This document shows positions 1-20,187 of a DNA stretch of 32,000 bases, one piece after another; within the stretch, counting starts at the first letter, position 1; every line of letters begins with the position of its first letter. The DNA is from Halogeometricum borinquense DSM 11551 (GTDB taxonomy: Archaea; Halobacteriota; Halobacteria; Halobacteriales; Haloferacaceae): positions 150,001-182,000 of the forward strand of contig NC_014736.1 of assembly GCF_000172995.2 (NCBI RefSeq), written 5' to 3'. A program made the translations under genes and the position numbers. The notes under the pieces were generated by a model that ran no database searches, was not told the DNA's origin, and saw only the letters and a list, made by a program, of their open reading frames with translations.

Positions 1-679
1 CAACACCACGGTCGTCCCACACTCGGACATCGGTCTTCCCGGACGCGACGTAGGGAAGGTCGTAGATGAGTGCCGACGAGTCGGTCGGTGCGTCACTCGT
101 GGCGACAAGGGCAACGTCACCGAACTCCGTAGCTGTCGTTGCGGACGGCGTTGCTAGCTGAACCTCGTCTGCAACGGGATCGAACCAACGCATACGGGTC
201 GCCGCCGCAGGGATACCGACCGCCGTAGACTGTGCGGGATTGTTCGTGATGTCGTTCTGCGTATCCGAGACGTTCATCTCGACTGACCGCCAGTGCGACT
301 GGCGGGTGCCAGCTTCCTCAAGTACCGCGCCAACATGCTGGAGGCTTCCAGCCGCAGTGGCGTCAAGTGGTTCTGACTGTCCAGAGTGGGCGACGTAGTA
401 CCCATCGTACTCGGTTGACTCACCGACGCCGAAGAACGGGATCACTCCGTAATCCGAATCGAGGAGTTCGCTAAACTGTGCAGCGAGGCGTCCCGCTCCG
501 TCGCCCCCGAGGAGAAACTCAAATCGGAGTTCACCCGGTTTGTGAGAGAGCGGTTTCGACATGAGGGCGCAGTCATCATTCGATACCGAGGAAACAGAGG
601 TCGTCTTGCGGTAGTCGCTATTTCCTAGCTGAACAATCCATTGATCACGCGTTGATAAGGTGTACAGTCTTCGTTTCAT
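1..679 (-). CDS. hypothetical protein, N-terminal ~226 codons (gene continues past the left window edge)
   Basis: ATG at 679-677 on the minus strand. I read the frame by hand down to nt 2 and found no in-frame stop. It starts 2 nt after the stop (681-683) of the upstream gene. It is absent from the ORF track only because it has no stop in the window. No family recognised. Confidence 0.55.
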   Translation of the reverse strand, partial: MKRRLYTLSTRDQWIVQLGNSDYRKTTSVSSVSNDDCALMSKPLSHKPGELRFEFLLGGDGAGRLAAQFSELLDSDYGVIPFFGVGESTEYDGYYVAHSGQSEPLDATAAGSLQHVGAVLEEAGTRQSHWRSVEMNVSDTQNDITNNPAQSTAVGIPAAATRMRWFDPVADEVQLATPSATTATEFGDVALVATSDAPTDSSALIYDLPYVASGKTDVRVWDDRGV

Positions 680-680
680 G

Positions 681-1307
681 TTAGAACTCCTCCTGTTCGG
701 TGAGCGCACCTGCTGGTTCGAGTGACCCAACAGGGACGCACGTGAGTGAAATTTCGACCGAGGACGCTTCGTCGGCTGCTTCGACGACGTGGGGGCCGTT
801 GGGGATGTAGACCGCCCGCGGTTCGCCGAACAGTCCCGGCTCACCGTCGGTTGTGTACGTGCCGTCGTGGTAGTGACCGAGATGGAGTGTCGCAGGGTTT
901 AACGAGTCCGTCGTCGCTTGCTCGATGTACCGGGACAGAACATCTGCTTGTGTTCGTGGTCCCGCACCGGTCGCATCGAGAGCAGTGAGCGTCGTTTCGT
1001 CGCCCGTGTTCCCCATCTGGAGATACTCGCCGTTATGAGTCGTCTCTGAGAGGGTGGCACGGATCTTGTACGGGACCTTTCCGCCGCCAGCATCGATAAT
1101 ATACGGCTGTCGGATGTCGTCTGGGGATCCGTCCGAAGGGAAATTGAGCGCGCGGTTGAGAACTTCGTCCGCCGGATTGACGGCGAACGATTTGTTGATG
1201 TCGCCAGTACAGTTGTAGTTCTTTGCCAACTCGAAGATGCCAGTTCGCTGTGCACCGTCGAGTCGGGCGTCGATTTCGAGAACGCAGTTGTTCAAGCGTG
1301 TAACCAT
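681..1307 (-). CDS. hypothetical protein (~208 aa)
   Basis: ORF 681..1337. The track start at 1337 is GTG; the in-frame ATG at 1307 (MVTRLNN...) is more likely. Acidic, Thr/Gly-rich composition. It abuts the next gene. No family recognised. Confidence 0.6.
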   Translation of the reverse strand: MVTRLNNCVLEIDARLDGAQRTGIFELAKNYNCTGDINKSFAVNPADEVLNRALNFPSDGSPDDIRQPYIIDAGGGKVPYKIRATLSETTHNGEYLQMGNTGDETTLTALDATGAGPRTQADVLSRYIEQATTDSLNPATLHLGHYHDGTYTTDGEPGLFGEPRAVYIPNGPHVVEAADEASSVEISLTCVPVGSLEPAGALTEQEEF

Positions 1308-1543
1308 TTGTGAGAGAATGTGGCGGTGTGACCCCACCGCCGCGGGTGTTCGTCTGCCGATTCCGTAACCTGTGATCCGTTGTATTCGTACCGCTCACGA
1401 GATTCCTATCGACGTCCCGAGATCGAACCCGAGTTTTCCGCTGCGGTCAGTGCCGTTCTTCGAATCTCGTTCCGTCCCAGTCAGACCTCGCTCGCGCGGA
1501 GAGTTGGGTCGCTTCCGCGCTCTCGGTCATCGGTCTGCATTGT

Positions 1544-1864
1544 TCAACGTTGGTCGTCGTCTCGAGACTGGACAGGTGGGTTACCACCTTGGATCATCGC
1601 CCACGCGGCGGCAAACTCGCCGTACTCGATCCCGAGTAGCGGGATGAGCAACGCGACTGTCCCGGCGAAGACGATTGTCGGGTCAGCGCCCTGTCGGGCG
1701 AGCGTGAAACCGTAGCCGAGGATTGCAGCGGCGAAGACGGCGTTCTTGACGAATTTCCATCGTTTGAGGTTCATTGGGGGACACCTCTGGCGAAGAAATT
1801 GATCGAGAGCACGATTCTGGTCGGTGAGTTCTGTGGGAACGAGTCCCTGTCGTGTTTTGGTCAT
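1544..1864 (-). CDS. small membrane protein (two predicted hydrophobic helices)
   Basis: ATG at 1864. Hydrophobic stretches AVFAAAILGYGFTL and IVFAGTVALLIPLLGI. Same strand as its neighbours. Confidence 0.5.
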   Translation of the reverse strand: MTKTRQGLVPTELTDQNRALDQFLRQRCPPMNLKRWKFVKNAVFAAAILGYGFTLARQGADPTIVFAGTVALLIPLLGIEYGEFAAAWAMIQGGNPPVQSRDDDQR

Positions 1865-1950
1865 GAGTCAAAGGTTGTGCGAACGTGATCGGGCAGCTGA
1901 ATCGAAACTCGGGGAATTGAGCGACAAAGAGGGAACACTGTCGCCAGCCG

Positions 1951-2445
1951 TCAGGCGGTCACCCGCTTTCGAGACGCCTCCGAAACACGCACGATGGCGT
2001 GCGACGTGCCAGCGGACAACGATTCAGTTACGCAATCGCCGTCATGGCGCGCCTGCAAGGCGTGAGAGGCGAACGCTTGCCGATCAAGCGTGATGCCCTT
2101 GTCTTCGAGAATCCGAATCGTCGCTTGCACGAGTCGTCGGAACTGTTCGGCGTTTACATCGGCCGTTTTGTTTTCGTCCTCGGGAAGCGGTTCATCGTCC
2201 CAGATGCGGACGTAACTGCCTTCGACGCCGCAGTCACACCAGATTCCTTTCGCGTCGGAGACGGCGTCTGCGGGTCCGTAGGCGACAGTCGTCGTTTTTC
2301 GGTTCCGAGCCCACTTCGATTCGCTGGTGGACGCGTCAGTACTGTACTGTCGTTCCGGGCGGTTACGCTCGACGCGGATGCGTCGATGACAGTTCAGGCA
2401 GACGTCTGGCGCGTTGAACACGCGTTTTTGGAGTATCTCGTGCAT
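1951..2445 (-). CDS. Cys-motif (CxxC ... CxC) protein, possible zinc ribbon; function unknown
   Basis: ORF 1951..2472. The track start is TTG; an ATG lies at 2445 (MHEILQKR...). Motifs CLNC and CDC. Acidic C-terminal half. Confidence 0.55.
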   Translation of the reverse strand: MHEILQKRVFNAPDVCLNCHRRIRVERNRPERQYSTDASTSESKWARNRKTTTVAYGPADAVSDAKGIWCDCGVEGSYVRIWDDEPLPEDENKTADVNAEQFRRLVQATIRILEDKGITLDRQAFASHALQARHDGDCVTESLSAGTSHAIVRVSEASRKRVTA

Positions 2446-2599
2446 GGTCTCGAATCTCGTGTCTGATTTCAAAGAAGCAGCTACGGCCCCACTTTCGGGT
2501 GGTCACGTCCCCGTGGTGGTTGGCCACTCACGGCGGGTGTCTGCGTACCTATTACTTTATTCTGGACTAGAAAAAGCGCTCTGCTAGCGGTCTAAATGC

Positions 2600-2854
2600 C
2601 TATTCTTCGTCGGGAACCGAGATGGTGTACACCCGCTGTCGAGCGTCCTCGAACGACGGGTGCGAAACGACCACACCGAGGTCTTCGAGGCGGGTCAGTG
2701 CGTGCCGAACCGTCCGCGGAGCGAGTGTCGTTTCCTCGATAATCCCCTGTTGGGTAAGCTCATCCTCAGCTCGATCCATGACGAGGTAGACGAGTTTCGC
2801 GCTTGGGGTGAGATCTTCGAGCCGCCCATCGTCGAGGTCGTATAGTGTACTCAT
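2600..2854 (-). CDS. small winged-helix DNA-binding protein (84 aa, MarR/TrmB-like wHTH)
   Basis: Pattern SAKLVYLVM...LTQQGIIEETTLAPRTVRHALTRLEDLGVV is typical of a wHTH. Its ATG overlaps the stop of the upstream gene (ATGA at 2851-2854). Confidence 0.7.
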   Translation of the reverse strand: MSTLYDLDDGRLEDLTPSAKLVYLVMDRAEDELTQQGIIEETTLAPRTVRHALTRLEDLGVVVSHPSFEDARQRVYTISVPDEE

Positions 2855-3339
2855 ACGCTTGTCTCCAGTTCGCCGGTTTCATTCGAACACCACGCGACCT
2901 CTTTCGGCATCGGATCACACGTGATGACCGCTTCGGTGACCGCCCGAAGATAGTCTTCGGTTGCCGCACAAAGGTCGTCTTCGGTCGCCGTACGAAGATA
3001 GTCAGCGTCGCCAGCGTACACGCTTGCTGGGATACTCGTCGTTCGGACAGTTGTGCCGATGCGGTGCCGCGCGGTGAACGTCGGTTGCCGTCGCCGGCGG
3101 TGTGTTCGTTGTCGCTGCTGTGTCTGTTGCTGTCTTCGTGTCCACTGTTGCTCTTGTGCCGGTCGTCGGGGTCGCATTCTCTGCCGGCGTTGTATCCTTT
3201 GTCGGTGTTGTATCTTCTGCCGGTGCTGTATCCTCTGTCGGTGTTGTTCTGTCGTCTTGGGCGTGTTATTGTCTGCTCTCGTCGTCATCGGAGGTTCGTG
3301 TCGGGTGGATGTCGGGTACCCGTCTCGTCCCGTTCTCAT
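2851..3339 (-). CDS. Arg/Gln-rich repeat protein with acidic C-terminal domain; function unknown
   Basis: This is the only frame with a start codon (ATG at 3339 or 3288) that runs through to the ATGA junction with the wHTH gene. The central tract is IQHRQ(R/K) hexapeptide repeats. The C-terminus is acidic with a halophile-like composition. Start and frame in the repeat tract are uncertain. Confidence 0.45.
   Translation of the reverse strand: MRTGRDGYPTSTRHEPPMTTRADNNTPKTTEQHRQRIQHRQKIQHRQRIQRRQRMRPRRPAQEQQWTRRQQQTQQRQRTHRRRRQPTFTARHRIGTTVRTTSIPASVYAGDADYLRTATEDDLCAATEDYLRAVTEAVITCDPMPKEVAWCSNETGELETSV
3182..3253. repeat. 18-bp tandem repeat x4 (tgYCGGYGYTGTATCYTY)
   Basis: Units read directly at 3182-3199, 3200-3217, 3218-3235 and 3236-3253. 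Confidence 0.9.
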
Positions 3340-3359
3340 CTACTCGTCCGACCACCGAT

Positions 3360-3592
3360 CTTACAGGTGTTGTAAGGCGCTTTTTTCGCGTCTCTGTTTC
3401 TCTATCGCGGAAGAAAGACGCAGAAAAAGACGCACCATACACTAACAGGGCGAGCTTACGCAAGCACAGTCGTGTATCGGTCCAAACGTGGTTTATTTGG
3501 GCGGTGGAATACCGCGGAAGAGTACCTTGCCGAGAGCGTGAGTGAGGGCCGTATAACACCTTTCTCCCTTGGACAGCCTTACAACACCTGTA
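3360..3592. repeat. 16-nt perfect inverted repeat pair bounding a ~200-bp ORF-free spacer
   Basis: TACAGGTGTTGTAAGG at 3362-3377 is the exact reverse complement of CCTTACAACACCTGTA at 3577-3592. The left copy is itself a hairpin (CTTACA ggtgt TGTAAG, 3360-3376) followed by T6 at 3381-3386. Confidence 0.85.
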
Positions 3593-3611
3593 CGGTTCTT
3601 TTCTGTCGAGT

Positions 3612-4385
3612 TCATTCCGTATGTACCCCAAGTTTGAGTCGCCATACCCCGTTGGTCTTCTTCACTTTGGAGTAGCGCGTGGAGTCGTCTGTCCAGTCGT
3701 CGATCTGGTCGAGTACACGTTTCACCTGCGTGGACTGTAATGACTCGTTTCGGGCGATTTCGAGCCTCTCTTTCACGTTACCGGCGTGCAGTAAAACGGC
3801 CGACCCGTTAGCGTCCGTCTTGACCGTTCCCCAGTCGGCGAGGTTCTGCAAGACGAGTTCGGCCCGTTCGTGTTTACCGTACACTTTCGACTCGACGGAC
3901 GCGACACCGTCTTTGACGACCTTTGCGACTTTATCGTCGCCGGGAACGGAGTCGAGGAGTTCAATATCGGTCTCATCAGCGAGATGGGTCACCTGTCGTT
4001 TGATGCGGGCAATGTCACGTTTGACCGACTGGTGGTTCCTGATCTGTTTCTCGCGGATGGCGTCGATCTGGGTGGTCTCCACTGAATCGGACAGAGAGAG
4101 AACGGCATCACCAATCGATTCGTGGTCGAGGTGCGCGAGAAGTTCCGAGGAGAGCCACTCGCCGAGGATGGCGTTTTCGAGGTCGAGAACGTAGTTTCGG
4201 AGCCACTCGTGGTCGTCTTCGAGTTCTTCGATGCGTTCGTTCTTCGCGTCGAGTTCCCGGTGCAGACGTTCGTTCTCCGCTTCGAGATCGTCAAGGCGGG
4301 ATTCGAGGTCGTTGAGGGAGGATTCGAGGGCGTCGAAGCGGTCGTCAGTCTGTGCGTTGGTCGTCGGATGGTGGCTCGTGGACAT
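3612..4385 (-). CDS. coiled-coil protein, function unknown
   Basis: ORF 3612..4403. The track start is GTG; an ATG lies at 4385 (MSTSHHPTT...). The N-terminal region LNDLESRLDDLEAENERLHRELDAKNERIEELEDD is heptad-like. Very acidic. Confidence 0.6.
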   Translation of the reverse strand: MSTSHHPTTNAQTDDRFDALESSLNDLESRLDDLEAENERLHRELDAKNERIEELEDDHEWLRNYVLDLENAILGEWLSSELLAHLDHESIGDAVLSLSDSVETTQIDAIREKQIRNHQSVKRDIARIKRQVTHLADETDIELLDSVPGDDKVAKVVKDGVASVESKVYGKHERAELVLQNLADWGTVKTDANGSAVLLHAGNVKERLEIARNESLQSTQVKRVLDQIDDWTDDSTRYSKVKKTNGVWRLKLGVHTE

Positions 4386-4540
4386 TGTGATATTGCTGAT
4401 CACTCTTGCTTGGCGTCCGATGCTGTCTGTTCCAACCCAACTTGACGACGCGCAGATGCACGGCTAGTCGAAACCCATCTGAGCGCTGCTGATCTGTGCC
4501 GTGGCGTCGTGATCTCGCCCCGCGTGTTCTCCGGTCATGA

Positions 4541-5281
4541 TCACGTTCTCGCGATTCTGGGCGCAAGGAAGTTTGTCACCGCAACGTTCCCTTCACTCAG
4601 TTCGTAGAACCATGTGAGCGGGAATTCGTCACCGACCTTGACGACCACCTCGGTATCGTTTTCAATGGGATCGACGAGTTCGGTCAGGTACCCGATAGAG
4701 AACAGCGATGACACGGCTTCGGGGATGTCCGTCTGCAAATCCTCGGAGTCCATACGAATTGAGACATCGTCAGTATCCCCTTCTGCTGTTGCGCGGAACT
4801 CACCGCTCTCGGCATCACCCTCGAATCGGGTGTGGTCGCTTGCGAGATCACATCCTTTGATTCCGCGTTCGAGACGATGACCGTAGACACGGATGCGTGC
4901 TGGAAAGTCAACTTCCGCGATGTCCGGCTCTCGCCGGATACTCTCGGGGTCGATCAGCCCGAGGTCGTAGCCGAATCCGTCGTACTCGATTTCGAGTTTT
5001 CGAGTCTCTGTGTTGAGTTCGAGTAAGACGAGATCACCCGTACTCGCAAAGCCGAGTGCATCATCCAACTTTTCGAGGTTGATTCCGAGAACCTCTCCGT
5101 CGGTCTCAAACGACTCGCAACCGTCCGAGGCGAGCGTCGTCTCAACCTGCGCAACCTGGGCTGGATCGGTGGCAGTGATGCGAAGATGGTCCTCAGTACA
5201 GCGGAGCCGGCACTCGTGGACAACCGCCATAGCGACGTTGAGGAACGTCTGCAGACGAGAGTACTCGACGATAACGTTCAT
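4541..5281 (-). CDS. pcn: PCNA (DNA polymerase sliding clamp) paralogue, divergent
   Basis: 246 aa, the usual archaeal PCNA length. Blocks shared with haloarchaeal PCNA as I remember it: ETRKLEI..DG..Y.L.LIDPESIRREPDI, AEGDTDDV, SLFS.GYL, GDEFP, and a C-terminal LAPRI. Confidence 0.85.
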   Translation of the reverse strand: MNVIVEYSRLQTFLNVAMAVVHECRLRCTEDHLRITATDPAQVAQVETTLASDGCESFETDGEVLGINLEKLDDALGFASTGDLVLLELNTETRKLEIEYDGFGYDLGLIDPESIRREPDIAEVDFPARIRVYGHRLERGIKGCDLASDHTRFEGDAESGEFRATAEGDTDDVSIRMDSEDLQTDIPEAVSSLFSIGYLTELVDPIENDTEVVVKVGDEFPLTWFYELSEGNVAVTNFLAPRIART

Positions 5282-5560
5282 TCAGGCGACCTCCTCGAGA
5301 TCGACAGTGACCGTACTCGACAACCAGCGACCGTCGTTCGTTCCAATGACGTAATCCTCGGGAGAGACGATGTATCGACCGGTCGGTGTCGAACCACCAC
5401 AAAGTTCGACCGGTGCCGGATCACTACAGAGTTCGGTTGATGCCGGATCACCACAAAGTTCGACCGGTGCCGGATCACCACAGAGTTCAGTCGCTGTCTC
5501 GTCGCTGTCGAGGTTCTCGAAGACGTTTTCATCGAACGACGCCAGCCGGTCGTGACTCAT
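5282..5560 (-). CDS. 92-aa acidic miniprotein with four ELCGDPAPV-type Cys repeats
   Basis: ATG at 5560 (MSHDRLASFDEN...). The longer track ORF to 5698 is basic and implausible. Its TGA (5282-5284) directly abuts the PCNA ATG (5281-5279). Confidence 0.55.
   Translation of the reverse strand: MSHDRLASFDENVFENLDSDETATELCGDPAPVELCGDPASTELCSDPAPVELCGGSTPTGRYIVSPEDYVIGTNDGRWLSSTVTVDLEEVA
5397..5490. repeat. 27-bp tandem repeat, about 3.5 copies
   Basis: Units 5397-5423 and 5451-5477 are identical (ccacaaagttcgaccggtgccggatca). Unit 5424-5450 is diverged. A partial unit starts at 5478. Confidence 0.9.
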
Positions 5561-5790
5561 TGATCGCACCCCTGGATGAGCGTTCGCTGACTCTGGTCTG
5601 TGGCAGGGCAGCGGACCGTGCCACGTGATTCGAGACTGCCGAGAGTAGGGTCGGAGTGTCTTACGAGAGACATATTCAACAAATCCGCCCGGTCGCATAT
5701 AAGCGACTGTCCCGCGTTTCTAGAAATAACCCCTATTCTGGGAATAGGCGTGCTGAAACCGTGGAGAATACGTGTGCAAGACGATTTTCC

Positions 5791-5795
5791 AAAAA
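5791..5795 (-). terminator. oligo-T (T5) tract 5 nt after the orc-like stop codon
   Basis: The minus strand reads TGA atcgc TTTTT. Archaeal termination commonly uses oligo-T tracts. Confidence 0.3.
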
Positions 5796-5800
5796 GCGAT

Positions 5801-6820
5801 TCACGAAAAAGATTCTATTTTTTGATACTTTCTGTTACGAGTTGAGCCGACGGATTCGACGAGATTGTAATCTTCGAGTTTGCCAAGGTACGTCGTCGTC
5901 GTCCGGCGAGTAACAGGATCAAAACCCCGGTTTGCGCACTCTGCTTCGTATAGTTCGTGGACACGCCGAGGTGCGATACTGTCGTGATCGCGGACGATGT
6001 CGAGCATGAGACGTTCGTGCGTTCCGAGTCGGTCGGATGCTTTCTGGCGAATGAGATCAGCGGCGTCGCCAACTGCCGGACCGATGTCGGTCATGGTGAC
6101 GCGTTCGTCGCCACGTTGGTGGGCACGAAGAGCAGCCTCGCGGAGTGAGACAATGGCGTGGCGTGCGTTTCCGCCAGCCCGGTCGGCAATCTCTTCGAGG
6201 ACGGAGTCGCTCACTGTCCCATCGACGAGTCCTTGGCGACGGCGCGGTTCCAGGATGGAAACAAGGTCGGTGACCGAATAGGAATCGAAGGCAACGCGTG
6301 TGTTGATAGCGAGACGGGACGAGACGTGTGAATCGAGATTTGCCATCAGCCTGTCTTCGTCGTTCGCAATAAGAACGAGACCAGCATCGAGGGAGGCAAA
6401 ATCGCGGAGCAATCCAAGGTCGGACAGCATCTCGACTTCGTCGACGATGAGAACAGTCGGGTGAGAGATGGCATCGCGGATGGCGTCGAGGAGATCTCCA
6501 CGCGATGGAGTCCGCGCAGTTATTGTTGCCCCGCCGAGTTGGTCGAGTACTCGCTGTAGCGTCCGTGTTGTTGTTCGCGCATCCCACGCATCAACGTACG
6601 CGCTTTTGGTAGCGATCTCTTGCTGTAGTTGGTCGACAGCGTACCGAGCAGTCACAGTTTTCCCCGACCCGGATGCGCCAGTGAGAAGAGCGTTCCGTGG
6701 CCGGTAGCCGTCGAGAGCGCAACTCAACGCTCGGGAGAGTTCGTTCAGTTCGCGGTGACGACGCCGGAGGTCGCCAGGGACGAACTCATCCACGTCGAAT
6801 ACATCTTCTCGAATAATCAT
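5801..6820 (-). CDS. Orc1/Cdc6-family AAA+ initiator-like protein, short form (339 aa)
   Basis: Walker A LTGASGSGKT, Walker B LIVDEVE, and a C-terminal winged-helix-like segment TYLGKLEDYNLVESVGSTRNRKY. The N-terminus VPGDLRRRHRELNEL resembles the Orc1 (V)P..L..RE.E motif. Confidence 0.85.
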   Translation of the reverse strand: MIIREDVFDVDEFVPGDLRRRHRELNELSRALSCALDGYRPRNALLTGASGSGKTVTARYAVDQLQQEIATKSAYVDAWDARTTTRTLQRVLDQLGGATITARTPSRGDLLDAIRDAISHPTVLIVDEVEMLSDLGLLRDFASLDAGLVLIANDEDRLMANLDSHVSSRLAINTRVAFDSYSVTDLVSILEPRRRQGLVDGTVSDSVLEEIADRAGGNARHAIVSLREAALRAHQRGDERVTMTDIGPAVGDAADLIRQKASDRLGTHERLMLDIVRDHDSIAPRRVHELYEAECANRGFDPVTRRTTTTYLGKLEDYNLVESVGSTRNRKYQKIESFS

Positions 6821-6845
6821 ATTCCCGATGACGTACCCTAGATTT

Positions 6846-6851
6846 GATATA
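6846..6851 (-). promoter_or_regulatory. TATA-like box (TATATC) about 28 nt upstream of the orc-like ATG
   Basis: The minus strand reads cgTATATCaaatc...ATG. The spacing fits a leaderless haloarchaeal transcript. Confidence 0.35.
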
Positions 6852-6919
6852 CGCTTACCGTCCGGTGAAAGTGATTATGAGAACTGTCGGAAGGGTGAAT
6901 CTGTCTAAAGCCAGCAGAA

Positions 6920-6939
6920 GTCTGTCTGTCTGTCTGTCT
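6920..6939. repeat. (GTCT)5 tetranucleotide microsatellite
   Basis: Read directly: gtct gtct gtct gtct gtct. It lies in the divergent spacer between the orc-like gene and the 6978 ORF. Confidence 0.95.
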
Positions 6940-6977
6940 ACATCGTGTCTGGGAAATGTAGTCAACAAATTTATGAT

Positions 6978-7223
6978 ATGTCGGACACAGTAACATATGA
7001 TATGAGTGAAACTGAAGCTCCAGAAGAGCGTATCGAGGAAACCACTACCTGGCCGGACCTAGCTGTCAGCCTTTACGACCGGCTTACGGGCCGTGGTGCC
7101 GAGATAATCTACGAGTTCGAGGATATGCATGTTGACGTGCCGAGCGGTACCGGCGAGGACGCCGAACACGCTCACTGGCGACTCAACGGCACTGTCCGCG
7201 TGACGACCCGTGAGCAAGACTGA
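6978..7223 (+). CDS. small acidic hypothetical protein (~81 aa)
   Basis: ORF 6945..7223. The track start is GTG; ATGs lie at 6978 and 7002. Strongly acidic halophile-like composition. Confidence 0.45.
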   Translation: MSDTVTYDMSETEAPEERIEETTTWPDLAVSLYDRLTGRGAEIIYEFEDMHVDVPSGTGEDAEHAHWRLNGTVRVTTREQD

Positions 7224-7593
7224 TCTCGTCGCACCACTGTCGGTTGCCACTGATGACCTGACCCTTACCGTCGCAGGGGTTACGATGCCGGTTCGCTCAA
7301 CCGGTGACCGGTTGTTCGTCGAAGTGCCGACGCTTCGGAGCGCGGTTCGGGTCGCTCGTGCAGTCAATGCCGTCCCGAGCGGACCCACACGTCTACTAAC
7401 GGTAACTGACCTGACGACTGAACTCAGGGTCCGTGGGAGGACCGTCGCGGTCTTTGGTGCTCACACCCGGCCGGGACCGCTTGCCCGCGAACTTGGAATC
7501 GCCCCGGCCGAGTTCAGACTTGGAGGCGCGTTGGCCGCCGCTAGCAGCGGTGCGACTGCCGCCGTAGATCACCTTCTCACATGGCTTCGCTGA
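7210..7593 (+). CDS. hypothetical protein (127 aa from GTG; ATG alternative at 7285)
   Basis: An open frame overlapping the previous ORF by 14 nt. Ala/Val/Thr-rich. No family recognised. The start is uncertain. Confidence 0.35.
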   Translation: MSKTDLVAPLSVATDDLTLTVAGVTMPVRSTGDRLFVEVPTLRSAVRVARAVNAVPSGPTRLLTVTDLTTELRVRGRTVAVFGAHTRPGPLARELGIAPAEFRLGGALAAASSGATAAVDHLLTWLR

Positions 7594-7665
7594 CCTGAGA
7601 CGTAAGTGGGGTTCTGGTGTGATGATCCGCTTCTCTTCAGGTAACGGCGTCTGCCGCTCGTCGGA

Positions 7666-7684
7666 CACCACCATTTCCAGTAAT
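7666..7684 (-). promoter_or_regulatory. ORB-like element 1 (degenerate)
   Basis: The reverse complement reads attactggaaatggtggtg. Confidence 0.55.
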
Positions 7685-7728
7685 ACAGTTATCTGAGCAG
7701 TATTTTCGGTTGTAATTTCTCACCTCGC

Positions 7729-7755
7729 CACCCCCTCCCCACTATTTCCAGTAAA
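7729..7755 (-). promoter_or_regulatory. ORB element 2 with G-string
   Basis: The reverse complement is tttactggaaatagtggggagggggtg, identical over 27 nt to element 3. Confidence 0.85.
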
Positions 7756-7973
7756 GCGGGAACAGAAAGCCACCCTAGCTATCACTACGGTCCGTTTCGG
7801 CGTTTATTCTTGCCGGATAACCTGGACGGTTCCACGTAAACTTCACATCAACTCCAGATGACTCTCCGTACAACCTCTCATCTAGCTAGCCTACGGACCA
7901 ACTTGTCTGACTACCATATGAATATTTCTAATTTCAGTATGTGTTCTCAGCCAACGGGCTGTATTTGTGGTGG

Positions 7974-8000
7974 TTTACTGGAAATAGTGGGGAGGGGGTG
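7974..8000 (+). promoter_or_regulatory. ORB element 3 with G-string
   Basis: tttactggaaatagtggggagggggtg. It forms a perfect 27-bp inverted repeat with 7729-7755, separated by 218 bp. Confidence 0.85.
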
Positions 8001-8058
8001 TTGCACTATCCTTATTTACCTCAGCCCTTCGCAGTCTACCGATTTCGTTCTCACACTA

Positions 8059-8078
8059 TTTTATTGGAAACAGTGGTG
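8059..8078 (+). promoter_or_regulatory. ORB-like element 4 (degenerate)
   Basis: ttttattggaaacagtggtg. Confidence 0.5.
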
Positions 8079-8101
8079 TTCGACTATCTTATAAAGAATG
8101 C

Positions 8102-8124
8102 TTTACTGGAAATACTGGAACACC
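8102..8124 (+). promoter_or_regulatory. ORB-like element 5
   Basis: tttactggaaatactggaacacc. Confidence 0.6.
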
Positions 8125-8212
8125 TCGGTCTGCCTTCATCCGGGCTGCTTTCGTTCAGGCTGTCTTCATTCGGACTTCCTCCATCGTGATAGACACACGC
8201 CGGCAACCGACG

Positions 8213-8233
8213 TTTACTGGAAATAGTGGGGTG
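8213..8233 (+). promoter_or_regulatory. ORB element 6
   Basis: tttactggaaatagtggggtg. Confidence 0.8.
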
Positions 8234-8257
8234 TTCCTCCCTCGTGTGTCCCGAATG

Positions 8258-8276
8258 TTTACTGGAAATGATGGGG
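8258..8276 (+). promoter_or_regulatory. ORB element 7
   Basis: tttactggaaatgatgggg. Confidence 0.75.
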
Positions 8277-8312
8277 TCTCACACGAGTAGTAGAAACATC
8301 ACCCATTGGTGG

Positions 8313-8334
8313 TTATACTGGAAATACCGGAAAC
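8313..8334 (+). promoter_or_regulatory. ORB-like element 8 (degenerate)
   Basis: ttatactggaaataccggaaac, about 50 nt upstream of the orc1 ATG. Confidence 0.55.
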
Positions 8335-8381: not shown

Positions 8382-9620
8382 ATGGCTCCCCGATTCCAAC
8401 CTGACGATACGCTGTATAAACGTCGGAATACGCTCAAGGTAGAATATGTTCCGGACGATATCGTCGGACGAGATAACGAAATCGAGGAGTACGAAGCAGC
8501 TCTCCAGCCGATCATTAACGGGGAGTATCCCGACAACATATTCATTTACGGCAAGACTGGTGTGGGGAAGACCGCCGTCACGAACTTTCTCCTCAACGAG
8601 CTCCAAGAGTCGGCGGAACACTTTGAGGTCGACCTCTCTGTCATCTCACTCAACTGCGATGGGCTCAGCACGAGCTACCAAGCTGCGATTAGCCTGGTAA
8701 ACAACCTCCGGGAACCCGAACACCACATCGCTGAGACCGGGCATCCGCAGTCCAAAGTCTATCGGCTACTCTGGGACGAACTCAACAAACTGTCCGGGAC
8801 TGTGATCATCGTTCTCGACGAGATCGATCACATCACAGACGACACGTTCCTCTACCAGATAACTCGTGCCGACAACAACGGATATATCGACAATATCCAA
8901 CTCGGTCTCATCGGCATCAGTAACGATTCGACGTTTCGGGAGCAACTTGACGCGAAAGTTCAGTCGTCTCTTTGTGAAACTGAAATTTCGTTTCCGCCGT
9001 ATGGGACCGAAGAACTCCAGAAAGTCCTCGAACAGCGAGCTGATATCGCGTTCCACCAGAGCGCACTTGAGGACGGTGTAATCCCGTTATGTGCTGCACT
9101 CGGCCGTCAGGATGGCGGTGATGCTCGCCGGGCAATCACCCTCCTCCGAAAGGCTGGTGACCTCGCCCGAACGGAGAATGCAGAGTCGGTGACGACCGAC
9201 CATGTCGAACGCGCCCAAGAGAAACTTGAGGCACAACAGAGCATGGACATTATGCGTGACCTCACCGAACACGAGCAACTCACGCTCTATGCGTTGACTA
9301 CGCTCGCTGCCGAGAATGCGACGCCTGCTCGCTCGCGCGTTGTCTATCAACGCTATAAAGAACTCTGTGAATACCAGGGTCGAGACCCTCGTACGGCGCG
9401 TCGGATGCGTAGCTTCCTCTCTGATTTCGAGATACTCAACCTGACGCTCTCACAGATGGTGCACCGTGGTCAGGACGGCGGGACGTACCGTGAGCATGAA
9501 CTCAACCGCGACATCGCAACTGTCGTTGACGCACTCCAGACTATCATCAGCGAATTCGGTGCCCATCGGAGTATTATCGAGTATCTCCCTGACTCCGGCG
9601 AAGAGTTCGTTGCGATGTAA
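8382..9620 (+). CDS. orc1: Orc1/Cdc6 replication initiator (412 aa)
   Basis: ATG at 8382 (MAPRFQPDD...YVPDDIVGRDNEIEEY). Walker A YGKTGVGKT, Walker B IIVLDEIDH, and a C-terminal winged helix. The track start at 8226 would translate through ORB elements 6-8 and is rejected. Confidence 0.9.
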   Translation: MAPRFQPDDTLYKRRNTLKVEYVPDDIVGRDNEIEEYEAALQPIINGEYPDNIFIYGKTGVGKTAVTNFLLNELQESAEHFEVDLSVISLNCDGLSTSYQAAISLVNNLREPEHHIAETGHPQSKVYRLLWDELNKLSGTVIIVLDEIDHITDDTFLYQITRADNNGYIDNIQLGLIGISNDSTFREQLDAKVQSSLCETEISFPPYGTEELQKVLEQRADIAFHQSALEDGVIPLCAALGRQDGGDARRAITLLRKAGDLARTENAESVTTDHVERAQEKLEAQQSMDIMRDLTEHEQLTLYALTTLAAENATPARSRVVYQRYKELCEYQGRDPRTARRMRSFLSDFEILNLTLSQMVHRGQDGGTYREHELNRDIATVVDALQTIISEFGAHRSIIEYLPDSGEEFVAM

Positions 9621-11859: not shown

Positions 11860-11987
11860 CCAGCCTGACTGTTCTGGCTGTCCAATGAGGACGATACACC
11901 GTTATGGGAACTCGCGTAGGAAACTCCCAAAACTGCCACGTTCCGGAGTACAAACGTTTTTTGCCCTGAGAGCGATTGTGTTCGTGC

Positions 11988-13943
11988 ATGTCGAACGGCC
12001 GGGGACCGGACTCCGAGACGGGGTTGGGCGAGTACGAGAAAATCGATCCTCCGACCTCGTTCGCCGAACAGGCAACTGTTACTGACGAGTCCATCTACGA
12101 CGAGTTTAATGACACCTGGCCCGACTGTTGGGAACGGGCGGCAGCGACAATCGACTGGAGCGAACCGTACGAGTGCGTCCTCCCGAATGACGAACCGCCG
12201 TTCGAGTGGTTTGCCGGCGGGACGCTGAACGCTTCCTACAACTGTCTGGACCGACACATCGAAGCCGGGGCGAAGAATCGCGTCGCCATCAAGTGGGAGA
12301 GCCATCTCGGCGAGACCCGGACGTACACGTATCAGGACCTCTACCGCGAGGTTAACGAGTTCGCGGCTGCACTTCGCGCACAGGGCGTCGAGGAAGACGA
12401 TGTCGTCACCCTCTACATGCCGATGATACCGGAGTTGCCTATCGCCATGCTCGCATGTGCCCGCATCGGTGCCCCGCACAACGTCGTCTTCGCGGGCCTG
12501 TCAGCGGATGCACTCGCTACGCGACTGGAGAGCGCTGACTCGGAGTATCTCGTCACCTGTGACGGCTACTACCGTCGAGGGAACGCTATCTTCCTGAAGA
12601 GCAAGGCCGAGGACGCCCGTCTCAAAACACCTCACGACCTCAGCGAGATGGTCCTTGTTGAGCATCTCGGCGAGGCCGAACATCTCGGGGAGACTCAGCA
12701 CACGTACGATGAACTGGTCAGCGAACACGCCGGTGCGGAGGTTGCACCGGTTGACCGGTCGGCCGACGATGTTCTCTTTCTGATCCACACTTCGGGAACT
12801 ACGGGTGAGCCAAAGCGAGTCGAACACGTCACCGGCGGCTATCTCGCCCACGTCACGTGGACGTCGCAGGCGGTGTTAGACCTCAAACCCGGGGATACGT
12901 ACCTCTGTACGGCGAACATCGGATGGATTAGCGGTCACTCGTACGTCGTTTACGGTCCGTTAGCGGTCGGAGCTACGACGGTCATGTACGAGGGGACTCC
13001 CAACTATCCGGAGAAAGACCGTATCTGGAGCCTCATCGAGCAGAATGCCGTGGACGTGTTCTACACGGCCCCGACGGCGATTCGCGCGTTCATGAAATGG
13101 GGTGCAGAGTATCCTGCACAGCACGACCTGTCGAGCCTCCGCCTTCTGGGAACGGTCGGTGAACCGATCAACCCCCGCGCGTGGCAGTGGTACTACGAGC
13201 ACGTCGGCAATGAGGAGTGTCCGATAGTCGATACGTGGTGGCAGACCGAAACCGGCGGTATGATGATCGCCACCCTTCCCGGCATCGACGCGATGAAACC
13301 CGGGGTAGCCGGCCCACCGCTTCCGGGAACCGACGCGAAAATCGTCGATGGAAGTGGCGAGGCAGTCCCGCCAAACGACGCAGGGTATCTCGTCCTTACT
13401 CGACCGTGGCCCGGGATGCCGCTCGCACTGCGACACGGGCGGCGATGGGGTCGTGAGGGTACCTCGGAGATCGAAGTGAACGGGTGGAACTACTTCACGG
13501 GTGACGGTGCGCGAGTAGACGAGGACGGCTATATCACCGTCCTCGGACGGATCGACGACGTCATCAACGTTTCGGGATACCGTCTCGGGACCATGGAGAT
13601 CGAAAGCGCTATCGTCGATGTCGAGGGCGTCGTCGAGGCCGCCGTCGTCAGCGTCGATAACGCCGAAACGGGCGGCGTCCACGCGTATGTCACGCTTGAG
13701 GCGGCTCTTTCCGGTGACGAGCAGATGCGCGAGCGAATCGCCTCCCACGTTCGCGAGCGTATCGGTCCGATTGCTACGTTGGATGCTGTCGTTTTCACGC
13801 CCGACCTTCCGAAGACACGGTCGGGGAAGATCATGCGTCGCTTCCTCGAAAATATCGCAAACGGCGAGGAGTTCGGTGACACATCAACGCTCCGAAACCC
13901 CGAAATCGTCGGCGAACTCAAGTCCATCGTTCGGGACGACTGA
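11988..13943 (+). CDS. acs: acetyl-CoA synthetase (AMP-forming), divergent copy
   Basis: ATG at 11988; the track start at 11976 is TTG. Motifs YTSGTTGEPK-like (HTSGTTGEPKRV), WWQTETGG, GEPINP, DDVINVSGYRLGTMEIESA, PKTRSGKIMRR. Confidence 0.9.
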   Translation: MSNGRGPDSETGLGEYEKIDPPTSFAEQATVTDESIYDEFNDTWPDCWERAAATIDWSEPYECVLPNDEPPFEWFAGGTLNASYNCLDRHIEAGAKNRVAIKWESHLGETRTYTYQDLYREVNEFAAALRAQGVEEDDVVTLYMPMIPELPIAMLACARIGAPHNVVFAGLSADALATRLESADSEYLVTCDGYYRRGNAIFLKSKAEDARLKTPHDLSEMVLVEHLGEAEHLGETQHTYDELVSEHAGAEVAPVDRSADDVLFLIHTSGTTGEPKRVEHVTGGYLAHVTWTSQAVLDLKPGDTYLCTANIGWISGHSYVVYGPLAVGATTVMYEGTPNYPEKDRIWSLIEQNAVDVFYTAPTAIRAFMKWGAEYPAQHDLSSLRLLGTVGEPINPRAWQWYYEHVGNEECPIVDTWWQTETGGMMIATLPGIDAMKPGVAGPPLPGTDAKIVDGSGEAVPPNDAGYLVLTRPWPGMPLALRHGRRWGREGTSEIEVNGWNYFTGDGARVDEDGYITVLGRIDDVINVSGYRLGTMEIESAIVDVEGVVEAAVVSVDNAETGGVHAYVTLEAALSGDEQMRERIASHVRERIGPIATLDAVVFTPDLPKTRSGKIMRRFLENIANGEEFGDTSTLRNPEIVGELKSIVRDD

Positions 13944-14085
13944 CCGCTATTTCGGAATTATTTGATAAGCCGAAACCGATGCTCGGAGAGTGATCGGTTC
14001 TATCGCGTGAAATACACCTCTCACCGACCGAAAATACCCCCGCCACCGAACGATTTAGTTCGCTTTAGGTAGAATAAGCGAAAGA

Positions 14086-15858
14086 ATGGGGCGTACGAAG
14101 TCCGGTACGACGCAGTTGGCCGAGGGGGACTACGAGCGACTGCGGCGGGCAACCGAAACGTATCGAGAGGACCTCGTACTCCGACTGGGTGCGGAAGTGG
14201 GTCTCAAGCCGGCCGAAATGAGCCAGTTCAAGCCCACACATGTAGTTCGTCGGACACATCGTGGAACGGACCTGTATCTACTCGCCGTCCCGGCCGATGG
14301 TCGAAACGCGTATCTGCCGAGCGATGTCGAACACGACGTTCGCAAGTACGTCCGGGCCAACAATATCGATGAGACGGAACGAGTGTTCCCGGTCACCCCA
14401 CGGCGTCTGCAGATGCTCGTGTCGTCAGTCGGTGAGCGGGCCGCCGAAAAGACCGGCCGCGAGGAATTAGTTGACGTCTCCTCGCGCGACCTCCGACGGT
14501 ACTTCGCCCGAACACTGCTCTCTGACGGTATCCACCCGTCTATCGTTATGCGTATCGGCGGGTGGGACCGGATAGAAAGTCTTGCTCCGCTCCTCGATGA
14601 TCCGGGAGAAGACGCAATACTTGACGCGCTCTCGCCGGAATCCGATGAGAGTGACGTGGAGCCTAACCAGGTCGAGACAGACCGGTTGCGGCAGGTCGTA
14701 GAGACTGCCCGAACCGTTGGCTCGGCGCTCCCGACCGTCAGTACGCGTAACGAAGTCGAACAGACTGTCTGTGATCGGTTCAGTGATTCAGCTCTCTATC
14801 AGTTCGCGTGGATCGAATCGGATACAACCGACGCGCGGGCATCGCTCGCCGCCGCCGCTGGTCTCGACGAGGCCTCGCTGGAAGCAATCCGTCAGTCGCT
14901 CTCGGGTCGGGATACCGATTCCGCCGACCGTGCATCTCGGACCCGTACCGTACAGACGGCTACGGCCGCTGACCTCCCTACGGGGACCGCACGTGGATCG
15001 CTCGCCGTCGTCCCACTGGTTCATGGCGAAACCGTGTACGGAGTTCTGTATCTCGCACTCGACCGGGGTGACGTGACCGACCCCGAAGCGGACGTGTTGT
15101 TGACGCTTGGACACCACATCGGGCAGGCTATCACCGCCGCAGAGCGCAGAAAATTACTGCTGGCCGATACGGTCGTTCAACTGGAGTTTCAGTGCTCGGA
15201 CCACAACGACCTATTGGTTCGACTCTCCGCGGACCTCAGTTGTACGGTTCGTCTTCGTGGGGTCGTTCCCATTGAAGCACAGTCCTTACTGTGTTTCCTC
15301 ACTGTCCGCGGCGCGGCGACCGAAGCAGTGTTCGACGAGCTAATGGCGGCGGAAGCGGTCGAAAACATCCGTTTGATTCGTGACCGTGGTGAGGAGTCAC
15401 TCCTCGAAGTCGCCCTTTCCGCTGGATCGACAATTATGACGCTCACCTCCTACGACGGCACCGTTTCGCAGTTCGTCGCGGAGGACGGTGTCGCCCGTTT
15501 CGCCGGCGAGTTTTCGAACGAAACGCCACTGCGGGACGTCATGGCCGATCTCACCGACACGTATCCAGACACCGAACTCGTGGCCAAACAAGAGATCGAA
15601 CGCCCCGCCCGTAACACGGCCGACTTTCGGCAGTCCCTGGCGACGCGACTCACTGATAAGCAACAGTCAGTTTTGCGGGCGGCCTACCTTGCCGGTTACT
15701 TCGAATGGCCACGCGGCAGTACCGCCGAGGACCTCGCCGATTCCATCGATATCTCCTCACCAACGCTGCATCAACATCTTCGAACTGCCCAGCAGAAACT
15801 CCTCACGTCTTTCTTCGACGATGAATCCGAGGGGCAAGACTCGACCCTAGGCCTTTAG
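14086..15858 (+). CDS. Bat-type transcription regulator: degenerate tyrosine-recombinase-like N-domain + GAF + BAT + HTH_10
   Basis: The C-terminus LTDKQQSVLRAAYLAGYFEWPRGSTAEDLADSIDISSPTLHQHLRTAQQKL is a classic HTH_10. The middle VPLVHGETVYGVLYLAL is GAF-like. The N-terminus LRLGAEVGLKPAEM ... SSRDLRRYFARTLLSDGIHPSIVMRIGGW resembles integrase box I/II. Confidence 0.8.
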   Translation: MGRTKSGTTQLAEGDYERLRRATETYREDLVLRLGAEVGLKPAEMSQFKPTHVVRRTHRGTDLYLLAVPADGRNAYLPSDVEHDVRKYVRANNIDETERVFPVTPRRLQMLVSSVGERAAEKTGREELVDVSSRDLRRYFARTLLSDGIHPSIVMRIGGWDRIESLAPLLDDPGEDAILDALSPESDESDVEPNQVETDRLRQVVETARTVGSALPTVSTRNEVEQTVCDRFSDSALYQFAWIESDTTDARASLAAAAGLDEASLEAIRQSLSGRDTDSADRASRTRTVQTATAADLPTGTARGSLAVVPLVHGETVYGVLYLALDRGDVTDPEADVLLTLGHHIGQAITAAERRKLLLADTVVQLEFQCSDHNDLLVRLSADLSCTVRLRGVVPIEAQSLLCFLTVRGAATEAVFDELMAAEAVENIRLIRDRGEESLLEVALSAGSTIMTLTSYDGTVSQFVAEDGVARFAGEFSNETPLRDVMADLTDTYPDTELVAKQEIERPARNTADFRQSLATRLTDKQQSVLRAAYLAGYFEWPRGSTAEDLADSIDISSPTLHQHLRTAQQKLLTSFFDDESEGQDSTLGL

Positions 15859-16054
15859 GGATGGGAACAACTGACGCACAATCATTCATTACTATCTAAT
15901 ATTTACTACTGCATACTAGAAATAGCTATTCTCGGGTATCAGTGCCTATGAGTAGATATTTTGCGCCAATCATTAATACGTATCTACTTTCTGACTATTT
16001 TTGATAGTTAGATGGACTACTTATGTCCTTTGTCGTGGCTCGTTAGCATGAACT

Positions 16055-18049: not shown

Positions 18050-18097
18050 TAGAACTCAACACCACATTATCGAGAAACAAGACAAGACGGACAAACT

Positions 18098-20184: not shown

Positions 20185-20187
20185 CCA

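Follow-up and report, generated by a model that had tools for sequence, protein, structure and literature searches.

The window analysed here comprises 32,000 nt of Halogeometricum borinquense DSM 11551 (NC_014736.1, positions 150,001-182,000) and carries at its left end a block of genes with a virus-type replication initiator and sliding clamp, which is the subject of this analysis. The DNA to the left of the window was read as locus L002, in which a window position equals 11308 minus the L002 position. The original prediction, made from the letters alone, had placed ten co-directional minus-strand open reading frames (ORFs) in the first 6.8 kb, and these were present in the ORF translations. 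Their tight junctions were also found as described: the stop codon of ORF 681-1307 (681-683) is followed by an ATG at 679-677, two genes overlap by ATGA at 2851-2854, and the stop codon at 5282-5284 directly abuts the ATG of the PCNA gene at 5281. Together with approximately 4.3 kb to the left of position 1, the block measures approximately 11.1 kb, comprises 11 genes and lies between two plasmid origins. Its features, read along the minus strand, are as follows.

5801..6820, minus strand: short virus-type Orc1/Cdc6 of 339 aa, the first gene of the block (Pfam, PHROG, viral homologues)
5282..5560, minus strand: 92-aa 'ELCGDPAPV' (Cys-repeat) ORF of uncertain coding status, with a 27-nt tandem repeat at 5384-5488
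4541..5281, minus strand: PCNA sliding clamp of a viral lineage (PF00705, structure 3hi8, CGphi46 PCNA)
3612..4385, minus strand: 257-aa coiled-coil protein, intact in four strains
2851..3339, minus strand: Arg/Gln-rich repeat ORF, 104-162 aa according to the gene caller, overlapping the next gene by ATGA
2600..2854, minus strand: 84-aa winged-helix regulator
1951..2445, minus strand: 164-aa CxxC...CxC protein
1544..1864, minus strand: 106-aa protein with two hydrophobic segments (from the sequence)
1308..1950, no strand: putative deletion-junction interval, collinear and gap-free in the other strains
681..1307, minus strand: putative 208-aa tail-tip protein p208, in the position of a distal tail protein
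1..679, minus strand: N-terminal 226 aa of the putative 378-aa tail-tip protein p378, the other 152 aa lying left of the window
L002 11766-15602, after p378: 1278-aa fn3 fibre p1278

In local tblastn searches, seven of the 11 block genes proved homologous to genes of the viruses BJ1, CGphi46 or Humcor1, with identities of 28-45% and in the same relative order: the short Orc, PCNA, the winged helix-turn-helix (wHTH) regulator, the CxxC protein and the three tail-tip proteins. The succession of replication, regulatory and structural genes, which had been likened to haloarchaeal virus and plasmid genomes, does follow that of a haloarchaeal virus. A tblastn search against phage records matched only the Halorubrum viruses BJ1 and CGphi46, and a nucleotide search of positions 1-6900 against such records gave no match, so that only the protein-level searches were informative. 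Several products had been described as matching nothing recognisable, which did not hold for ORFs 681-1307 (phrog_20675, E 9e-72), 1-679 (phrog_18406, 7e-63, or 1.6e-111 with the full p378 protein) and 1951-2472 (phrog_27334, E 1.5e-41). The Orc matched phrog_7998 at E 1.4e-52 and the fibre p1278 its PHROG family at E 2.6e-266.

The Orc1/Cdc6 identity of the first gene was confirmed by AAA_22, Cdc6_lid and Cdc6_C matches, all above the Pfam cut-offs. Its translation contains the Walker A motif GASGSGKT and the Walker B motif LIVDE, and it matches archaeal Orc1 structures over its full length (residues 10-330 align to 2v1u). The PHROG match likewise spans the full length, whereas the two neighbouring plasmid Orcs reached only about 1e-21 with the same family. 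The protein is 31% identical to BJ1 ORF16 over its full length (E 2e-37) and 30-33% identical to the Orc1 proteins of ChaoS9, Harhisp1, LSV-48N, SNJ2, Humcor1 and HJTV-4; this short type occurs in haloarchaeal viruses of several morphologies. The PCNA assignment was supported by a PCNA_N score of 25.9 bits against a cut-off of 20.3. Residues 4-244 align to the Haloferax volcanii PCNA (3hi8) at E 6.6e-60, and the protein is therefore less divergent than had been held. It is 44% identical to HALG_00033 of CGphi46 (E 2e-62). The view that an extra Orc and an extra PCNA are not housekeeping genes was thus upheld, as both are of virus type.

The remaining early genes are consistent with this picture. 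The wHTH protein gave only weak MarR_2/HTH_24 matches in Pfam but is 37% identical to BJ1 ORF39 (pairwise E 5e-9), and its pairing with the downstream CxxC gene recurs in BJ1 and in one IMG/VR contig. The CxxC protein is 38% identical to BJ1 ORF41, 45% to HALG_00011 of CGphi46 and 44% to HrrHm1_310 of Humcor1; in the complete relatives, its homologue is the last early gene ahead of the packaging module. Since another strain has a 14-nt indel inside the longer TTG-start version (1951-2472), the likely start of this gene is the ATG at 2445. The coiled-coil prediction was confirmed with Pfam, but Pfam and PHROG returned only generic coiled-coil matches and IMG/VR only coiled-coil noise, and no homologue of this protein was found outside H. 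borinquense.

On the tail side, p208 is 28% identical to BJ1 ORF64 and has the homologue HALG_00048 in CGphi46, while p378 is 32% identical to BJ1 ORF65 (3e-37) and 33% to HrrHm1_095 of Humcor1, which sits directly after the annotated tape measure. The fibre p1278 is 39% identical to BJ1 ORF67 over 732 aa (E 1e-139). In the related loci L008, L010, L011, L013 and L015, the p208 homologue is the first forward-strand gene past the presumed tape-measure gene, although an antisense rhomboid gene sometimes intervenes. Since the homologues of p208 and p378 directly follow the presumed tape-measure gene and precede the fibre genes in the complete relatives, we call both proteins putative tail-tip proteins on gene position and family membership. 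This agrees with the original prediction, which had considered the last two proteins possibly structural. A Dit or Tal fold is not claimed for either of them.

The antisense gene encodes a rhomboid-family membrane protease and was located at 9329-9937 in L008, 8568-9176 in L011 and 9296-9928 in L013. It is absent from the H. borinquense block, and none was found annotated in BJ1.

The block differs from its viral relatives mainly by what lies between its two halves. In the BJ1 genome map, approximately 15 kb (ORF42-ORF63) separate ORF41 from ORF64 and encode a tRNA, an exonuclease, the small and large terminase subunits, the portal, the protease, the capsid, connectors, the tail tube and the presumed tape measure. 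In the block, the homologues of ORF41 and ORF64 are only 643 bp apart, the sole ORF between them encodes the 106-aa membrane protein, and no fragment of a head or tail gene was left in this interval. No homologue of the BJ1 large terminase, portal, protease, major capsid, tail, MCM or exonuclease proteins was found in the window or L002, and tblastx with eight related loci detected no further viral match in the window or the extension. Neither capsid, portal, terminase, tail tube, tape measure and integrase genes nor attachment (att) repeats were found, either in the window or in the further 9.3 kb outside it, and the block contains no helicase or primase gene. For comparison, an integrase is encoded by all Graaviviridae, and their proviruses are roughly 40 kb long and flanked by att repeats (PMC8651126, including its S7 table).

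Tail-tip genes in other genomes had a head or tail module upstream in every context examined outside H. borinquense, namely in Halobellus rubicundus, Halobellus sp. H-GB7, two Haloferax Atlit strains, Hfx. mucosum, Hfx. elongans, a 42-kb Logan contig, a 65-kb JGI contig and the three isolated viruses BJ1, CGphi46 and Humcor1; two of these contexts have an integrase downstream. Because every other context keeps these genes, the truncated arrangement is specific to H. borinquense, and it is best read as derived by deletion from a provirus of roughly 40 kb. The same architecture was not found in other genomes, IMG/VR or metagenome contigs by scans and protein-neighbourhood look-ups. Scans of IMG/VR with the Orc, CxxC and coiled-coil proteins singly returned nothing useful or coiled-coil noise, and the p378 alignment retrieved only two already known Haloferax contigs. 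A metagenome scan yielded one complete BJ1-like contig. A scan of species genomes with the p208 alignment found only two Haloferax loci and missed H. borinquense itself, and is consequently unusable as a census.

The original prediction had the block running off the left edge of the window, which would allow a complete inducible provirus or integrated replicon with its structural genes beyond that edge. Tightly packed co-directional genes, an Orc and a PCNA of virus type and structural genes following them are what such a provirus would show. The leftward extension holds only the rest of the 378-aa gene and the 1278-aa fn3 gene, followed by an inverted repeat cluster resembling origin recognition boxes (ORBs), a 416-aa plasmid-type Orc, and genes of the VanZ-like, CTP-transferase-like, Usp, Na/Pi cotransporter and NAPRTase types. 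Consequently, the block does not run far beyond the edge but forms an insert-like unit between origins. With the capsid, packaging, tail-shaft and integrase genes missing, an autonomous virus is impossible here. ARAGORN found no tRNA in the 32 kb, and Pfam matched none of the window's large ORFs to an integrase or transposase domain; the absence of a tRNA and an integrase had been stated before. A search of the flanks for att sites found no direct repeats bracketing the block. The approximately 11 kb also fall far short of the roughly 40 kb of att-flanked Graaviviridae proviruses (PMC8651126). A complete provirus is refuted for this locus and scarcely conceivable as an explanation. Since the packaging, morphogenesis and integrase genes are missing, the block is a defective provirus remnant and not an inducible provirus; of the candidate provirus, the viral derivation stands, but no complete or autonomous provirus is present. 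A split provirus with its head genes elsewhere was also considered and rejected, as no structural homologue was found in the rest of the window and no Halogeometricum occurred among 26 relatives of the tail tube, in a search of limited sensitivity.

Composition marks no border, because the GC content of the block (57.3%) is similar to that of the remaining window (52.6-57.2%). An exact copy of p208 was found on contig AOHT01000004.1 of GCA_000337855.1, also H. borinquense DSM 11551 (C499_00865), and on a 210,350-bp contig of DSM 11551, on which the neighbouring gene Hbor_39400 is the 378-aa gene. The proteins from the fibre through the short Orc are ADQ69253-ADQ69263 in DSM 11551. The 210-kb plasmid of H. 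borinquense is pHBOR03 (bioRxiv 10.1101/2024.04.11.588991).

Four H. borinquense genomes were compared, the three further ones being GCA_040679015.1 (205-kb contig), GCA_004150395.1 (848-kb contig) and CP048739.1 (3.99-Mb replicon). All four have the same block, gene order, junction and flanks. Universal synteny in the absence of virus hallmarks had been held to speak against a provirus; the block is syntenic in all four available genomes, yet virus homologues are clearly present. The strains form two lineages approximately 5% apart in DNA, in the block and the flanks alike, with DSM 11551 and ELS19 in one group and S2 and G3I44 in the other.

Between the lineages, the ratio of nonsynonymous to synonymous substitution rates (dN/dS) of the main genes ranged from 0.05 for the Orc to 0.26 for fibre patches, with 0.12 for PCNA, 0.15 for the coiled-coil protein, 0.18 for the CxxC protein, 0.24 for p208, 0.22 for p378 and 0.15 for p1278 outside its mosaic patches. 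The flanking plasmid genes had values of 0.00-0.13. All indels within seven main ORFs were multiples of three. When the observed numbers of substitutions were placed at random in these seven ORFs in 2000 simulation runs, none of the runs kept all seven free of stop codons, whereas the 429 observed substitutions introduced no stop. Amino-acid-changing substitutions made up 41% of those observed, compared with an expected 70% and a simulated minimum of 63%. Because of the low dN/dS values, the in-frame indels and the simulation, the main genes of the remnant have been under purifying selection since the truncation, assuming that the shared junction represents the ancestral truncation.

A recently truncated provirus that is still too young for decay would be neutral junk, the default expectation for prophage remnants, and the two repeat ORFs with dN/dS near 1 and copy-number changes fit this expectation. 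However, the junction is common to lineages with a dS of approximately 0.05-0.1, and the stop-free frames, the deficit of nonsynonymous changes and the in-frame indels of the seven ORFs are all at odds with neutrality, which makes this explanation very improbable. Logan contigs of 7.3-7.5 kb over the late half of the block were considered as possible transcripts. They end at different points, in or close to repeats, neither metadata nor a paper on them was found, and no inference was drawn from them.

The fibre gene departs from the strain background. Across the block, DSM 11551 and ELS19 share approximately 99% identity, but in the fibre protein only 84%. A four-way sliding comparison showed all three possible strain groupings within this gene. 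In residues 1-400, DSM 11551 groups with S2 and ELS19 with G3I44, contrary to the background and with approximately 60% nucleotide identity between the two types; in residues 400-440, S2 is the outlier; and in residues 440-480, DSM 11551 groups with G3I44 and S2 with ELS19. Residues 800-1020 follow the background grouping, with 67-83% identity and a 20-aa insertion, and elsewhere the identity is approximately 95-100%. All four alleles are open, with lengths of 1278, 1296 and 1297 aa and, in ELS19, 1253 residues to the end of the locus (annotated product 1277 aa). Because the divergent patches have a dS of approximately 0.5, compared with a background of 0.1, at a dN/dS of 0.22-0.26, they were imported from diverged but functional alleles and did not arise by local mutation. 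Host-range or surface-recognition genes behave in this way. In a remnant without head genes, fibre recombination is the one feature that may come as a surprise to specialists.

The following features lie on the two sides of the block.

6945..7593, plus strand: two small divergent ORFs (73-92 aa; 127 aa) located ahead of the plasmid origin, next to the block
7664-8332 (repeats) and 8382-9620 (Orc): ORB-type origin with inverted repeat copies and a 412-aa plasmid-type Orc
L002 15780-16220 (repeats) and 16340-17590 (Orc): second origin, of a different ORB type, with inverted copies of GTTACAAACGCGAGGGTGGTGTGT, upstream of the 416-aa Orc

In the origin at 7664-8332, CCCCACTATTTCCAGTAAAC is repeated at least five times in direct and several times in inverted orientation, and one inverted pair of 27 nt is perfect. 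At the DNA level, the 412-aa Orc of this origin shares 82-85% identity with orc genes from other megaplasmids of haloarchaea; two of those genes sit at, or within approximately 350 bp of, the start of their records. This is probably an origin of pHBOR03. The intergenic origin region is the most diverged non-repeat stretch between the strains, and its Orc protein is 100% conserved. The second origin with its Orc lies approximately 4.5-6.3 kb left of window position 1, so that the viral remnant is bracketed by two origins, each with its Orc. Two orc/cdc6 genes and two predicted origins have been reported on pHBOR03 (Wu et al. 2012, PMC3528665), and the two genes counted there are presumably the two flanking Orcs.

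A plasmid or minichromosome backbone had been offered as the alternative to a provirus, in which case the Orc and PCNA of viral ancestry would serve pHBOR03 and the other genes would hitch-hike. The surroundings agree with this, given an ORB-type origin with a plasmid-type Orc on each side; the block itself does not. Its fixation in all four strains and an Orc dN/dS of 0.05, as constrained as the flanking plasmid Orcs (0.00-0.01), are in favour of such a role. However, no ORB cluster was found next to the block Orc, the nearest one (7664-8332) belonging to the plasmid-type Orc at 8382-9620, and only two orc/cdc6 genes and two predicted origins were counted on the plasmid (PMC3528665). Furthermore, hitch-hiking fails to explain why the 5.6 kb of tail-tip genes have kept their frames intact at dN/dS values of 0.15-0.26, and seven genes stand in virus order. 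A backbone role for the block is unlikely, and the extra Orc should not be counted as an initiator of a plasmid origin.

In other strains, the pHBOR03-like region was found on larger molecules. It lies with both origins and the remnant on the 848-kb contig of one strain (L024) and on the 3.99-Mb replicon of another (L027, CP048739.1), and the megaplasmid appears to have fused to larger replicons in some strains.

Taken together, we consider it highly probable that the block is a capsid-less remnant of a temperate siphovirus of the BJ1/CGphi46/Humcor1 kind (Graaviviridae-like), which amounts to about a quarter of a BJ1-like genome, has become fixed in pHBOR03 and whose genes have been maintained. 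It has kept an early module (the virus-type short Orc1/Cdc6, PCNA, coiled-coil, wHTH and CxxC proteins) and a distal tail module (the 208-aa and 378-aa tail-tip proteins and the 1278-aa fn3-rich fibre), whereas the exonuclease, terminase, portal, protease, capsid, connector, tail tube and tape-measure genes would have been lost by one internal deletion between the CxxC and 208-aa genes. This deletion would predate the split of the strains. Since integrase, att, packaging and head genes are missing, the block cannot by itself excise, package DNA or assemble a particle.

Several observations weigh against this interpretation. The main genes lack stop codons, frameshifts and dN/dS values near 1, which are typical of dead prophages though they do not define them, and the word 'remnant' therefore refers to origin and not to present activity. 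The estimates of selection come effectively from two lineages approximately 5% apart. The tail-tube search was limited in sensitivity, with the tail tube of BJ1 itself unlisted, and head or tail genes could lie elsewhere in the genome. For p208 and p378, the assignment to the tail tip is based on where their genes lie and on the families to which they belong, and the structural models add little to it. In the fold search of ORFs 681-1307 and 1-679, neither protein had a significant match in the PDB: the AlphaFold model of p208 is poor, with a predicted local distance difference test (pLDDT) score of 54, and Foldseek ranked baseplate and tail-tip PDB chains at the top with E 0.02 or worse, while the p378 model reached a pLDDT of 71.5. 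The p378 model did give two significant BFVD matches to unnamed viral proteins, one at 1.6e-29, but its BFVD matches to a 'distal/minor tail protein' were not significant.

The remnant may have been retained because its products still act. In the setting we prefer, they would act in trans during infection by related viruses, with the Orc and PCNA replicating or amplifying the locus and the tail-tip trio joining or disturbing the tail assembly of the invader. The imported fibre segments need a source, and related viruses must consequently exist. Alternatively, the Orc and PCNA could have been exapted by the plasmid, or the fibre as a surface protein. We hold it to be rather unlikely that the block is indeed a stable, selected capsid-less cassette, reduced to an initiator, a clamp, regulators and a full tail-tip complex that diversifies by recombination, and either acting in trans on infecting relatives (as a satellite-like hitch-hiker or as a defence of the population that mis-equips virions) or with its fibre exapted for variable cell-surface recognition or adhesion. 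If true, nothing of this kind would have been described before for head-tailed viruses of Archaea.

Another explanation would be a helper-dependent or anti-viral element. When a related siphovirus infects, this satellite-like cassette would replicate by means of its own Orc and PCNA, and its own tail tip would enter the helper particles, resulting either in spread with its own host range or in non-infective progeny that protect the population. The retained genes do form a coherent set (initiator, clamp, regulators and the full tail-tip trio), all under purifying selection, the fibre diversifies by recombination in the way of host-range genes, and the spindle-virus satellites of Archaea provide a precedent (bioRxiv 10.1101/2025.02.15.638363). 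Against it, there is no integrase, packaging gene or recognisable end, the locus is immobile and occupies the same site in four strains, and scans of other genomes, IMG/VR contigs and metagenome contigs did not recover its architecture. To our knowledge, no helper virus of H. borinquense is known. We regard a helper-dependent element as improbable. The block was not filed as a satellite because there is no evidence of mobility and the architecture was not found outside the species.

For the most part, the Graaviviridae-derived remnant explains the 'hypothetical proteins', the extra Orc and the extra PCNA on pHBOR03 and mainly tidies the annotation. Less ordinary are the selection that has kept a head-less, integrase-less remnant intact across four strains and the deeply divergent fibre alleles, whose shuffling does not follow the genomic background. 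H. borinquense is transformable and its genes can be disrupted (bioRxiv 10.1101/2024.04.11.588991), and thus the use of the retained tail tip can be tested in the organism.

The two repeat ORFs behave differently from the main genes. The 27-nt array within the Cys-repeat ORF comprises 3.9 copies according to Tandem Repeats Finder (TRF). The length of this ORF is 92, 74, 95 and 95 aa across the four strains, with in-frame indels of 54 and 9 nt and a dN/dS of 0.94. The Arg/Gln-rich ORF contains an 18-nt array at 3179-3247 and a 24-nt array at 2931-3003 (TRF), differs between strains by indels of 18, 90 and 3 nt, and has dN/dS values from 0.8 to above 1; the whole 24-nt array is missing in two strains, and array copy numbers shift by in-frame steps. 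Both ORFs stay open in all four strains. Because their copy number varies and their dN/dS is about 1 or higher, constraint at the protein level is doubtful. The 27-nt array, which lies about 240-310 bp downstream of the viral Orc, is a candidate protein-binding array, instead of or besides coding.

The 106-aa protein had no significant homologue in Pfam or PHROG, and its dN/dS of 0.32 derives from only 8 substitutions. A protein of the same size with two transmembrane segments upstream of the Humcor1 terminase was compared with it and rejected, as the comparison was not significant. The two divergent ORFs at 6945..7593 matched no Pfam, PHROG or plasmid entry, are kept in all four strains with dN/dS values of 0.13-0.42, and may belong to the remnant. 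A (GTCT)5 microsatellite is located at 6920-6939 in the promoter region between these ORFs and the viral Orc, where an 8-nt indel separates the two strain lineages.

Other features were observed elsewhere in the window and the plasmid. In GCA_004150395.1, a 14.7-kb island lies between a GNAT acetyltransferase gene and the first acetyl-CoA synthetase gene (L024 1-4915, L007 1-3361). The bases at window positions 11898-11905 occur on both of its flanks, suggesting an 8-bp target duplication. The island encodes two long ORFs (1438 and 756 aa), a DUF8574 protein and further ORFs that match nothing in Pfam, has only 44% GC at one end, and may be a defence or mobile island. Positions 11976-20652 of the window hold an acetate-utilisation-like cluster, in which two acetyl-CoA synthetase paralogues flank a GAF/BAT/HTH_10 regulator and DUF4212, SSF transporter and Usp genes follow; it is 99% identical in GCA_004150395.1. 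Roughly 50 locus tags from the remnant (Hbor_39400), pHBOR03 also carries an experimentally studied contractile injection system resembling a type VI secretion system (Hbor_38640-38890; bioRxiv 10.1101/2024.04.11.588991); no connection of this system with the remnant was found, none having been tested for.

Our literature search turned up no description of an H. borinquense provirus, and Halogeometricum is not in the provirus table (S7) of PMC8651126. In a 2024 survey, defective proviruses and their domestication were barely documented in Archaea (PMC11705971). The isolated viruses whose seven genes are collinear with the block, BJ1 (Beejeyvirus), CGphi46 (Seejivirus) and Humcor1, are siphoviruses of the Graaviviridae (Kirjokansivirales, Caudoviricetes). 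Their genomes measure 40-46 kb, in contrast to the approximately 11 kb of the block, and encode a terminase, a portal, a protease, an HK97-type capsid, a tail tube and a tape measure as well as an integrase with attP and an MCM or primase, none of which the block has. Conversely, no counterpart of its coiled-coil protein, two repeat ORFs and 106-aa membrane protein was detected in these viruses. The closest relatives of the tail-tip trio are Graaviviridae-like proviruses of Halobellus, Haloferax and metagenomes (L008, L010/L022, L011, L013, L015, L016, L028), with 51-57% identity for p208, 40-49% for p378 and the same order of p208, p378 and fibre. In these proviruses, unlike in the block, the region immediately upstream still encodes the portal, protease, capsid, tail tube and tape measure. 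Several of them carry the antisense rhomboid gene before the p208 homologue, and L008 and L010 have an integrase downstream.

In Archaea, spindle-virus satellites combine a replication module with an incomplete morphogenetic module, and tailed viruses of Archaea have no known satellites or parasites (bioRxiv 10.1101/2025.02.15.638363). The satellites pSSVx and pSSVi and the haloarchaeal SRCEs resemble the block in having replication genes and an incomplete virion module. However, they are small free circular plasmids tied to spindle-shaped viruses, whereas the block is immobile, resides in a 210-kb plasmid and is derived from a tailed virus. Among bacteria, domesticated or cryptic defective prophages were reportedly treated by Bobay, Touchon and Rocha in PNAS in 2014, and the cryptic prophages of E. 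coli K-12 are said to be of this kind. Domesticated prophages of bacteria are truncated, vertically inherited at a fixed locus and under purifying selection, and their tail fibres recombine with those of other phages. The block shows the same evolutionary behaviour, but in an archaeon and on a megaplasmid, and it keeps replication and tail-tip genes, whereas the bacterial elements keep lysis, tailocin or gene transfer agent-type modules.

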